From positions 347,336 through 411,335 of the forward strand of contig NZ_CP162490.1 in NCBI RefSeq assembly GCF_041245805.1: DNA of 64,000 nt. Direction: 5' to 3'. The DNA comes from Xanthomonas tesorieronis. GTDB lineage: Bacteria; Pseudomonadota; Gammaproteobacteria; Xanthomonadales; Xanthomonadaceae. The notes under the pieces are model-generated. The model saw only the letters and a program-made list of their open reading frames with translations. It had not been told where the DNA came from and did no database searches. Positions 30,163 to 33,921 of this stretch are shown one piece after another (positions within the stretch are counted from its first letter, which is position 1; each line of letters opens with the position of its first letter). The position numbers and the translations under genes are program-made.

Positions 30163-31382
<1,220 letters not shown>

Positions 31383-31439
31383 TGTCTTTCATTCCTTCGA
31401 GGCCACGCGCGGCGCTTCCTTGCGCCGCGCATGGCGGTC

Positions 31440-32561
31440 CTACTTCATCGTCACCAACTGCTTCAGCACGCCATCCAGGCCGCCGAACACGGTGAGCTTG
31501 TCGATCTTCTCGGTGACCTTCTCCAGCGCCTCCAGCTCCTTCAGCCGCATCAGCACCGGGTTGTCCTCGATCAGCTTGGCGGTGTTGAGCAGCGAGCGCG
31601 TGGCGTTGGCCTCCTCGCGCCGGCGGATCACGTTGGCCTGCGCCGACTTCTCCGCCTGCACCACCGCGTTGAGGATGTCCTTCATCTCGCCGGGCAGGAT
31701 CACGTCCTTGACCCCGACGCCCAGCACCTCGATGCCGAAGCCGGCGACCTGCTCGCGCACGTAGCCGAAGATGTCCGCATCCAGCGACGCCTTGTCGCCC
31801 AGCAGTTCGTCCAGCGTCTTCGCCGACACCGCACGGCGCAAGCCGTACTGCAGCTCGCGATACAACTGGTCGCCGTACTTGGCCACCCGCGTCCGCGCGG
31901 CGACCGGGTCGGCCACGCGCATGCTTGCGGCCAGGTTGACGCGCAGGCTGACCTTGTCGCGGGTCAACAGCTCCTGCCCGGACACCTCCACCGACTGGAT
32001 GCGCAGCTCGATCACCTCGGCGACGATGTTCTTGCGGAAGTTCCAGAACGCATAGTGCCCAGGCGCCAGGGTCTGCTGCAGGCGCCCGTCGACGAACACC
32101 AGTCCCGCCGACTCGGCCGGAACATCCAGCGCCACCGCGAAACGCGACAGCAGACCGAGCTGACGCAGCCGCTGGGCGACATCCGCCGGCACCGCCAGGC
32201 TCTCGCCCAGCGGCAGGCGCATCACCTCCACCGCGATCAGCCCGCGCCAGTACAACCGGCGCGTGCCGGGCGCCAGCACGTCTTCGAGCTTGCCCTGCTT
32301 GAACACCAGGCCGACCTCGTCGCTGCCCAGGTCGGCCAGCACGAAGACCTCGTGCAGCTGTGGGTCCAGGCGTGCGATCAATGCATCGACATCGGTGTCG
32401 GCGTATTCCGGCATGGCGATATTGCAGGTCTTCACTTCGATCCGCTGCGACGGGTCGAACAGACGGTAGACGCCGGGCGCGAGCACGCGCTCGAAACGCC
32501 GGTTGCGATACATCAGGCCGCGCTCGCTGTCGCCGATCACGATCCGCTTGGTCCAGAACAT
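31440..32561 (-). CDS. SPFH/band-7 domain protein (slipin-like)
   Basis: SPFH domain with a coiled-coil C-terminus. Strong AAGGAG RBS before the ATG at 32561. Sits upstream of rtcB in the same operon. Confidence 0.85.
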   Translation of the reverse strand: MFWTKRIVIGDSERGLMYRNRRFERVLAPGVYRLFDPSQRIEVKTCNIAMPEYADTDVDALIARLDPQLHEVFVLADLGSDEVGLVFKQGKLEDVLAPGTRRLYWRGLIAVEVMRLPLGESLAVPADVAQRLRQLGLLSRFAVALDVPAESAGLVFVDGRLQQTLAPGHYAFWNFRKNIVAEVIELRIQSVEVSGQELLTRDKVSLRVNLAASMRVADPVAARTRVAKYGDQLYRELQYGLRRAVSAKTLDELLGDKASLDADIFGYVREQVAGFGIEVLGVGVKDVILPGEMKDILNAVVQAEKSAQANVIRRREEANATRSLLNTAKLIEDNPVLMRLKELEALEKVTEKIDKLTVFGGLDGVLKQLVTMK

Positions 32562-32932
32562 GGCACGTTCTCCTTGTGGCTCTGGTGGTCCGGTCCGGTG
32601 GATGAAGTCGCCGCGCCGGACCGACGAGCGCGAGGACGCCGCGTTGCCAGCGCCATGGGCGCGGCAACGCGGCAGGAGAAGTGCAAGTGCGCGCACGACG
32701 TCGTCACGGCGGCCAGCGGGCGCTGTCGGTGCGGAGGCCTGCGCGTGTGGTCGGCATCGCGTTGCACTGCGATACGCCCGTCGGCGCAGGCGCGCACGTC
32801 CAAGGCGGCGCGGCGGCGGCAGCGACGCTGCGGCGCATGCCGCACGCAACGCCGGTGGCGATGCGTGCGGCGTGTCCGCGCGGCGCGACTTGCTGGGCTT
32901 GCGCCCGGTATTGCACATGACGTGAAAGGTCA

Positions 32933-33009
32933 TGGTTCTCGGAGCGGGAATCGAACCCGCAACCCTCGGATTAAGTTTCCGATGCTCTAACCAATTGAGC
33001 TATCCAAAA
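32933..33009 (-). tRNA. tRNA-like gene, best read as tRNA-Lys(CUU), with non-canonical features
   Basis: Manual cloverleaf fold: D arm GCTC-AATTGGTTA-GAGC; anticodon arm TCGGA-AACTTAA-TCCGA; T arm GCGGG-TTCGATT-CCCGC; encoded CCA. U1-A72, two G-U pairs in the acceptor stem, and A instead of U at position 33. Confidence 0.5.
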
Positions 33010-33010
33010 G

Positions 33011-33076
33011 CGACGTGCCGGAGTCGAACCGGCGACCAGTGGACAAGCCACCGCTCTACCTCTGAGCTAACGTCTG
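33011..33076 (-). tRNA. Degenerate tRNA-like sequence (probable pseudo-tRNA)
   Basis: Good D arm (GCTC-AGAGGTA-GAGC) and T arm (GCCGG-TTCGACT-CCGGC). The anticodon region is 3-4 nt too short to fold, and acceptor pairing is imperfect. Confidence 0.3.
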
Positions 33077-33921
33077 GTGGAACTGCGCGTCCCGGCCGCA
33101 GGCATACGCGACGGCAGCGCCGTGCGCACCGGACGGGATGGCATCCCGTACCGCTAGCGGCCATTAAGTGCAGTTTCCCATTGCCGTCTCCTTCGAAACG
33201 GCAAATTCTGCGTCGATTCCATTCCCGCCGCCCGCGTCCGGCACCTGGACGCAGCGCTTGTGCGCCTCACGAGCGAAACTTCCCTGTTTCCGGGCATTCC
33301 ATGCCCGGGTGCCTTGGGATTTTGAATCGACAAAACAAAAAAACATACGAACGCGCAAAGCAAAACGCCCCCGGCATGGTGTCCGAGGGCGTTCGCGTTC
33401 CTCGGAGATCGATGCAACCGATCTCCGCAACGGGCGATCAGTCGATCAGGTGGTGGGATCCAGCCGCAGCGCGGTATCGCACAGCGCACGCAGTGCCGCT
33501 GCGCGCGTTTCGCGCTGCAGGCTGGGCAGATGTGCGTTGAAGGGTCGGAAGTTCATGGTCGTCTGATTCGTCGCTGCCGAACGTGTCGGCTGATGGGCGC
33601 GCACATTACCCGTGTTGTTTTCATTGCGCAAGAGGTTTGTCGAATTATTTTTATCGCGTCGATGTCGATCGCGCGCCTTCCTCGGCCGAAAGATTCGCAG
33701 TGGCCGGGAAGGCATTTCCAATTCTGGTGTTTTGGTTACTGTGGGCGGCTGCTCAGAGCGGGAAGATTTATCGATGCATCGTCGAATTTTCTCTGGCGAT
33801 CGCCGCTCTGGCGCAATGCGCGCTGATAGGCTCGCGCTGCGTCTTCCGTCAGCCAGACACTTACTTTCCGGTTGCTGGATGGCGCCTGCGATCAAGTCAC
33901 TTCCCCGACGGAGTCATCGAA

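Follow-up and report, generated by a model that had tools for sequence, protein, structure and literature searches.

Two abutting tRNA-like elements, A and B, precede the genes for a Band-7/SPFH protein and the RNA ligase RtcB in the 64-kb window of Xanthomonas tesorieronis DNA (the whole stretch that was analysed), and they are probably non-decoding tRNA mimics, embedded in a conserved leader, that serve as partners of a Band-7/RtcB RNA-repair module. Each element folds as a cloverleaf, the pair is retained with compensatory base changes and stays linked to the Band-7 gene, and the loop of B that corresponds to an anticodon loop does not evolve as that of a tRNA. A first-pass annotation of this DNA had listed non-standard tRNA-like RNAs tied to the SPFH–RtcB RNA-repair operon among its explanations, and this one, as opposed to ordinary tRNA genes, is upheld here. 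The substrates of bacterial RtcB and the workings of its accessory factors are still largely open, and the branch with Band-7 and the so-called b7a-tRNA has been predicted from genomes only. The locus is a clean and widely conserved example with a testable anatomy, consisting of A, the bait-like B, an anticodon-loop-like hairpin and a covarying leader.

The locus and its genes

The two elements and the two genes are arranged on one strand as follows.

33011..33076, minus strand: tRNA-like element A (RF00005 match at 33012-33074, covariation, cap statistics)
32933..33009, minus strand: tRNA-like element B (ARAGORN, Rfam RF00005, family alignment, covariation)
31440..32561, minus strand: Band-7/SPFH ("slipin family") protein, 373 aa (Pfam PF01145, 109 bits)
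30163..31392, minus strand: RtcB RNA ligase, directly after Band-7 (Pfam PF01139, 412 bits)

The gap between the 3' end of B and the Band-7 ATG (32561) is 371 nt, in agreement with the distance of about 370 nt upstream of the SPFH–rtcB operon given in the first-pass annotation. There are three candidates for the RtcB start codon (31392, 31383 or 31377). The Band-7 protein has 7691 homologues at E ≤ 1e-10, the closest being "slipin family" proteins of Lysobacterales. A stomatin-type SPFH domain covers residues 147–359 approximately, as indicated by matches to stomatin in the PDB, and the N-terminal region of about 150 aa is without family assignment. In an AlphaFold model of low confidence (pLDDT 62.7), the protein resembles cage- or ring-forming SPFH proteins, and the longest structural alignments of the same model are those with the major vault protein, a predicted likeness that we take as a lead only.

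The flanking genes in the window encode, according to Pfam, an aldo-keto reductase, LysR, Rrf2, a pyridine-nucleotide oxidoreductase, SnoaL, a hydrolase and ADH. Across 80 Lysobacterales loci, the conserved neighbours of the pair are Band-7 and RtcB only, the other flanks varying by clade. No conserved third gene (Rsr/Ro60, RtcA or other) was found near the pair across these 80 loci, and no Rsr/Ro60 (TROVE) gene is present among the Pfam-scanned neighbours in the window.

Conservation and covariation of the pair

The comparison set comprised 80 fetched genome loci with Band-7 relatives that are 73–97% identical, the nearest being that of Xanthomonas bonasiae; Xanthomonas, Pseudoxanthomonas, Luteimonas, Lysobacter, Thermomonas, Dyella, Rhodanobacter and other genera are represented. 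The T-arm signature of B was found upstream of Band-7 in 78 of the 80 loci, the two exceptions having less than 400 nt of upstream flank, and the abutting A+B pair is present in every Lysobacterales locus with sufficient flank (78/78). In most of the 80 loci, ARAGORN reports a tRNA-like call, or two that abut, some 350–650 nt before Band-7; the upstream one is usually labelled "tRNA-???" and its loop is abnormal, and the anticodon of the downstream one differs nearly each time. The T-loop motif GGTTCRANTCC occurs in just two copies in 64 kb, which, together with the conservation in 78/78 loci, places the pair far beyond chance.

Two adjacent cloverleaves were obtained de novo by RNAalifold from an alignment of 79 sequences. 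Standard pairs make up 98.4% of the cells in the A+B alignment, compared with merely 32–48% in a slid-register control, and 18 of the 34 base pairs change on both sides, compared with 8.9±1.4 in shuffles (0/500 reach the observed count).

tRNA genes are common integration sites, and an integration-site remnant, adjoining a patch of low GC, had been among the first suggestions for this region. Lower-GC DNA does lie upstream of the pair (0.50–0.62 versus 0.68 for the window), but the difference is modest, and the patch begins about 170 nt beyond A, not immediately next to it. A search for the tRNA 3' end at up to 3 mismatches returned one match in 64 kb, so that the direct repeat expected of an integrated element has no second copy in the window; the region lies outside all repeat families, and a scan of ten flanking ORFs gave no match to an integrase family. 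Throughout an order and outside it, the pair persists next to Band-7 without exception and shows compensatory changes, while the other flanks differ. Pseudogenes would not retain 98% pairing. The conservation and covariation effectively refute an origin from an integration site or from decaying tRNA genes of a mobile element, to which we give next to no weight.

Element B: a constant tRNA body with a variable loop

B is the only tRNA that ARAGORN calls in the 64-kb window (tRNA-Lys, anticodon CTT (CUU), 32933-33009, minus strand); of the two elements that the first-pass annotation had proposed to check in this way, A received no call. B matches RF00005 with 56.4 bits (E=1.8e-09 for the 64-kb window; 32936-33009, minus strand; gathering score 29), whereas the same model gives 68.9 bits on a bona fide tRNA. 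The cloverleaf is complete. Its acceptor stem consists of 7 bp (UUUUGGA/UCCGAGA) with U1-A72 and the wobbles U2-G71 and U4-G69, the anticodon-like loop is the 7-nt AACUUAA on a 5-bp stem, the T loop (UUCGAUU) and the GG of the D-loop are as in ordinary tRNA, and the 3' end in the window has a discriminator A followed by an encoded CCA (ACCA). ARAGORN, RF00005 and the minus-strand reading therefore agree with the earlier description of B as a cloverleaf with anticodon CUU (Lys), an encoded CCA, U1-A72 and two G-U pairs. The A at position 33, which had been pointed out as unusual, is indeed present, but it is no peculiarity of this copy: among 74 loci, position 33 is U/A/G/C in 54/8/7/5 (U33 = 73%).

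The 74 orthologues with a 7-nt loop carry 27 anticodons, among them the stop-codon-reading UUA, and 44 distinct loops, while Y32 is kept in 70/74 and A37 in 69/74. In most species the acceptor stem has 4 bp (UGGA/UCCA) and is not followed by CCA. The 7-bp stem with ACCA on B is found in the window and in Xanthomonas bonasiae only, one further locus having the stem alone, and in the window the "CA" of this CCA also belongs to the stem of the conserved hairpin that follows B. Throughout the family, the D, T and acceptor stems hardly change in sequence, and strong covariation is seen in the anticodon stem, where one pair, for example, is AU in 43, UA in 25 and CG in 9. The Levitt pair 15:48 is G:C in 66 loci and A:U in 10, with 2 exceptions, and this covariation supports an L-shaped fold.

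The divergence at loop positions 32-36 was 0.36 and 0.54, compared with 0.08 and 0.15 at the four-fold sites of Band-7, an imperfect yardstick in that these sites belong to a genome with GC3 of about 0.9 (codon bias) and that the pairs are not phylogenetically independent. In the same comparison the divergence of the T loop is about 0.1. From these alignments, the rate of change in the anticodon-like loop of B appears to be no lower than that of synonymous sites.

A further 108 copies of B from metagenomes, among the matches listed, carry 30 anticodons and 65 loops, in which C/U32 is kept, U36 is found in 80/108, A37 in 103/108 and A38 in 92/108, and positions 33-35 vary freely. Of the NNU "anticodons" in this set, among the matches listed, about 20% (AGU, AUU, AAU, ACU) are not normally used by bacteria, and thus the loops of B are not strict copies of those of real tRNAs. 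The unused NNU anticodons weaken a precise-decoy model, which bears against the explanation that we favour, and fit a simple lack of constraint. An enrichment of real tRNA anticodons in the loops was also considered, and it was unconvincing (62/80 NNU loops are real ones versus about 69% at random).

For the copy in the window by itself, a decoding tRNA would be a natural reading: it has a 7-bp acceptor, a discriminator A, an encoded CCA and an ARAGORN call as tRNA-Lys, and it might be a rare tRNA-Lys(CUU) isoacceptor or, as had been suggested, a suppressor, accompanied by a second unusual tRNA. This reading is very improbable. As a family, B cannot be a decoding tRNA, because it has 27 anticodons in 74 loci, no more than 73% of which have U33, and because its acceptor is in most cases of 4 bp and lacks CCA. 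Already in the window A33 and the score below that of a bona fide tRNA are at odds with decoding, the anticodons placed on one body include UUA and bacterially unused ones, and A lacks a 7-nt loop in most species. The same variety of anticodons on a constant body, mostly with the short acceptor and no CCA, speaks against the suppressor. B will go on being annotated in error by gene callers as one tRNA or another (Lys, Asn, Met, "Stop" and others), and tRNA repertoires are distorted as a result.

Element A: a tRNA-shaped partner

A single nucleotide separates A from B. A matches RF00005 with 39.9 bits (E=6e-05; 33012-33074, minus strand), which exceeds the gathering score of 29. The D and T arms are normal, and the acceptor stem, of 5-6 bp in general, has 5 bp in the window. 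The anticodon arm is replaced by a 4-5-bp stem, capped in the window by the 5-nt loop CUUGU. The good D and T arms and the shortened anticodon region that had been read from the letters are thus present. The conclusion once drawn from them, a decayed duplicate, does not hold, since all four stems covary and the cap is a 4-nt loop in 50 of 79 loci, a strict GNRA in 27. In most species, N-CCA follows A and not B. A is a conserved partner of B, a tRNA-shaped structural module and not a decayed copy.

The structured leader

The pair is held in a conserved structured non-coding region of about 640 nt, which extends from a hairpin, P1, to the Band-7 ATG. No Rfam family matched the leader outside A+B. 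Its other parts, all on the minus strand, are as follows.

33093..33201, minus strand: conserved 5' block upstream of A (alignments, per-helix compensatory counts)
33201-33184, minus strand: hairpin P1 of the 5' block, covarying
33163-33158 / 33098-33093, minus strand: long-range helix P2, enclosing P3, covarying
33153-33130, minus strand: P3, inside P2, covarying
33129-33104, minus strand: helix P4, with the conserved motif GGUGCGC...GCGUAUGCC
32916..32934, minus strand: hairpin directly after B, CAUGAC-CUUUCAC-GUCAUG, with three covarying stem versions
32895..32906, minus strand: GNRA-capped hairpin GGGC-GCAA-GCCC, covarying (GGGAC-GCAA-GUCCC, GGAAC-GAAA-GUUCC)
32685..32890, minus strand: GC-rich "rod" domain of about 200 nt with three nested helices and compensatory pairs
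32890-32881 / 32694-32685, minus strand: outer long-range helix of the rod, 10 bp, 5 compensatory pairs
32828-32811 / 32715-32698, minus strand: enclosed helix of the rod, 15 bp, 9 compensatory pairs
32797-32789 / 32737-32729, minus strand: enclosed helix of the rod, 8 bp, 8 compensatory pairs
32590..32624, minus strand: helix UCGGUCC/GGACCGG just upstream of the Band-7 RBS AAGGAG, 7 bp, 4 compensatory pairs

The conserved GC-rich sequence directly upstream of A measures about 125-160 nt, and the P4 motif recurs in Photobacterium, Burkholderia and a Firmicute. The hairpin after B has an anticodon-loop-like 7-nt loop in 66/79 loci (CUGUCAC in 25, CUGUAAA in 11, CUUUCAC in 9). A match of the 5' block, on the opposite strand, to the Burkholderia sRNA ncS037 of Rfam (20.1 bits versus a threshold of 112, E=1.3) is taken as chance, because the Burkholderia Band-7 locus itself is without such a match.

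Spread beyond Lysobacterales

In plasmid and chromid records, tblastn with the Band-7 protein gave homologues from Burkholderia, E. coli/Citrobacter, Photobacterium and a Firmicute. The Photobacterium locus, whose Band-7 is 39% identical, has an abutting A+B pair too (RF00005, 54.1 and 46.4 bits), and reduced or rearranged tRNA-like modules with T arms and GNRA-capped arms are found in Burkholderia, E. coli and Subdoligranulum. The related leaders in other phyla are 300-500 nt long. The E. coli island encodes a slipin and an RlaP nucleotidyltransferase, and a related leader without annotation occurs in 30% of complete genomes of E. coli, a species in which genetics is easy.

A metagenome scan with the tandem signature gave at least 120 contigs. 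Among the matches listed, a Band-7 homologue lies downstream on the same strand in 72 of the 73 with at least 1 kb of downstream sequence, many of these homologues being just 35-50% identical, and RtcB is present in 17 of the 33 with enough sequence. The RNA thus tracks Band-7, not RtcB, among these matches. The absence of RtcB beside half of the metagenomic instances, among the matches listed, counts against the explanation that we favour. On viral contigs, 13 matches to the B signature proved to be ordinary phage tRNAs: none of the 10 that could be parsed has a Band-7 or RtcB homologue, and one comes after a T-arm-like motif.

Promoters and the possibility of control in cis

In the window, no sigma-54 sequence TGGCAC-N5-TTGC with up to 2 mismatches was found near the leader, and no convincing sigma-70 consensus was found around it. 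The invariant CCGGTGCGCGCGGC was considered as a sigma-54 site; it has the GG-N10-GC spacing, but the other consensus bases are absent. RtcR/bEBP motifs (GAFTGA, Walker-A) were found neither in the window nor within ±6 kb in the 80 loci. On the other hand, the leaders of E. coli, Burkholderia and Photobacterium have a clear sigma-54-type TGGCAC-N5-T(T/C)G(C/A) upstream of their tRNA-like modules. For Xanthomonas, the literature search yielded no expression data on this locus.

As the main alternative, A and B might be modules of a long 5' UTR that controls band7-rtcB, not components of a trans-acting RNP, either as signals for processing by RNase P/Z/E and for stability or as a damage sensor that refolds the leader in cis upon cleavage. 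Several features are in line with such a role: conservation spans all of the roughly 640 nt between P1 and the ATG, and helices that covary extend as far as the RBS; the sigma-54-type promoters in E. coli, Burkholderia and Photobacterium place the modules in the Band-7 5' UTR unless a terminator intervenes; and the Lysobacterales loci, which are without an RtcR-type activator motif within ±6 kb, need another control. However, no terminator, anti-terminator or RBS-sequestering pairing was found in the leader, and the RBS lies outside the nearest helix. The invariance of the D and T arms of B also exceeds what folding or RNase P would need, since the stems of A covary freely. We regard purely cis-regulatory modules as unlikely, while noting that such a leader is compatible with a trans role after processing, so that the two readings are not exclusive.

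A proposed role for the pair

As non-decoding mimics that partner the Band-7/RtcB module, A and B are most likely transcribed together with the leader. In this view A is a structural tRNA-shaped module with a capped hairpin for an anticodon arm. The invariant body of B, with its elbow and Levitt pair, may be a handle for an oligomeric Band-7 scaffold, by analogy with Ro60 and Y RNA, and its exposed loop may stand in for the anticodon loops on which ribotoxins (by cutting) and RtcB (by resealing) act, as a mimic of their substrate or as a bait. Such a particle could absorb toxins, or it could gather tRNA-shaped substrates together with the ligase.

A bolder version, which we consider distinctly improbable, is that A+B are the working part of a large, structured, multi-domain RNA, which would have a soluble, cage-forming SPFH protein as its partner and, in lineages without RtcR, would act as a cis-encoded sentinel. 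The bait loop of B would be cut by ribotoxins, as might the anticodon-loop-like hairpin after it, and the cut would switch on band7-rtcB expression or recruit RtcB. An arms race with the toxins would then impose diversifying selection on positions 33-35 of B. If this were true, the locus would encode a vault-like or Ro-like RNP for sensing RNA damage, built of tRNA mimics.

Comparison with known systems

B shares with a canonical tRNA-Lys(CUU) the cloverleaf, the T loop, the D-loop GG and, in this lineage, the 7-bp acceptor with CCA, whereas it differs from it in A33, in the weak acceptor (U-A, U-G, U-A, U-G), in the unconserved anticodon and in the lack of CCA in most relatives. The rtcBA operons controlled by RtcR and sigma-54 in E. 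coli and Salmonella are likewise RNA-repair modules centred on RtcB; in contrast to them, the present locus has no sigma-54 match in the window and no bEBP motif, and RtcA is not conserved across the 80 Lysobacterales loci.

YrlA is a tRNA mimic whose gene neighbours that of RtcB in Salmonella, and near-invariant D and T stem sequences and covariation of the Levitt pair are reported for it. The likeness lies in a tRNA mimic that is co-encoded with RtcB and for which a cofactor role in RNA repair is proposed. A+B might even be a bacterial Y RNA of this type whose tRNA-like domain is detected by the tRNA model, as a weak match to RF02553 (YrlA; 25.9 bits, 32983-33038, minus strand) could suggest. 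However, the gathering threshold is 69, the match merely bridges the T arm of A and the D arm of B, the hairpin that the model expects between those arms is flagged as non-canonical, and no Rsr/Ro60 is conserved. YrlA consists of a permuted tRNA-like domain that a Ro60-binding stem closes, with Rsr as its partner, whereas both cloverleaves in the window are complete and non-permuted, their partner is Band-7 and an Rsr gene is absent. An identity with YrlA is scarcely credible and is effectively refuted.

The closest known counterpart is b7a-tRNA, a predicted ncRNA beside Band-7 and RtcB. In a later preprint, it is described as unvalidated as of 2018, the prediction is credited to Burroughs & Aravind (2016), and functional redundancy with the tRNA-mimicking Y RNA YrlA is proposed (bioRxiv 10.1101/312249); b7a-tRNA has also been proposed as the cognate RNA of a Band-7 scaffold. 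Rfam has no family for it. The pair in the window resembles it in lying beside Band-7 on the same strand, in the tRNA cloverleaf and in the RtcB operon, and by its gene context and shape it matches the predicted b7a-tRNA class as later described. Beside b7a-tRNA as far as this later description goes, the tandem of A and B, the loop that evolves faster than synonymous sites and the leader of about 640 nt without RtcR/sigma-54 are possibly new.

Conserved elements of the leader

The structured non-coding leader of the gene for the SPFH/slipin-family protein (Band-7) extends beyond the two abutting tRNA-like elements, A (33011-33076, minus strand) and B (32933-33009, minus strand). The approximately 125 nt on the 5' side of A (window 33093-33201, minus strand) are conserved in all Lysobacterales loci, and no Rfam family matches this block. 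Its hairpins covary, as in ATTGCCGG...CCGGCAAT versus ATTGGCGCC...GGCGCCAAT. The helix GGUGCGC...GCGUAUGCC is invariant and is also found 5' of tRNA-like modules in Photobacterium, Burkholderia and one Firmicute.

B is followed directly by a further element:

32916-32934, minus strand: hairpin immediately 3' of B, with a covarying stem of 5-6 bp and a 7-nt loop

This hairpin overlaps the CA of the 'CCA' of B. The loop, which has UGU or UUU at its core, is similar to an anticodon loop; its versions include CUGUCAC (25 loci), CUGUAAA (11 loci) and CUUUCAC (9 loci, including the window).

The 370-nt 'spacer' preceding the Band-7 gene (window 32562-32932, minus strand) is non-coding and not neutral: within it lie a GNRA hairpin, a GC-rich rod of about 200 nt composed of three nested helices, and a helix adjoining the ribosome binding site of Band-7. 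Compensatory changes are numerous in the rod, for example GGAAACGCCCC/GGGGCGUUUCC to GCAAGUCGCGC/GCGCGCACUUGC in the window.

Promoters and upstream boundary

Sigma-54-type promoters open the distant Band-7 leaders of E. coli, Burkholderia and Photobacterium:

L082:3679-3694, E. coli locus: sigma-54-type promoter TGGCACGCTTCTCGCA
L081:3484-3499, Burkholderia locus: sigma-54-type promoter TGGCACGCTCCTCGCT
L083:3567-3582, Photobacterium locus: sigma-54-type promoter TGGCACACCAATTGAA

The leader of the window itself has no match to such a promoter, and neither the window nor the 80 Lysobacterales loci have, within ±6 kb, a motif for the sigma-54 activator class including RtcR (bEBP). Some 165 nt on the 5' side of the conserved leader block is a hairpin that, together with a T run, resembles a terminator (window 33365-33377, minus strand). 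It probably terminates the upstream ORF (33446-33895, minus strand), which has no Pfam match, and limits the possible location of the leader promoter.

Band-7 protein and its neighbours

The N-terminal region of about 150 aa of the Band-7 protein (window 31440-32561, minus strand) has no family assignment. A low-confidence structural model suggests that it may form two five-stranded beta repeats that precede the SPFH domain and the long helices. The major vault protein is among the Foldseek matches of this model, with the longest alignments. No obvious transmembrane segment was seen in the protein by eye. In five loci (L033, L035, L039, L056 and L070), an extra ORF of about 270 aa (cluster 30) is inserted between the Band-7 and RtcB genes.

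Related leaders in other lineages

In E. coli, a related leader is found with a slipin-RlaP nucleotidyltransferase in an island between yjbD and lysC, which is present in 1632 of 5426 complete genomes, with a zeta-toxin family gene on the opposite strand:

L218:5001-5355, E. coli: island leader, with the same island type in L082

RefSeq leaves this leader unannotated, and a T arm (TGGGTTCGATTCCCA) and a hairpin are all that it keeps of the tRNA-like modules. In Burkholderia cenocepacia (L081:3622-3744), the modules stand in a different order: the first tRNA-like element lacks the D arm and has an acceptor stem of 7 bp, the second has its anticodon arm capped by GAAA, and a GNRA hairpin comes after them. 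The leader architecture is thus lineage-variable.
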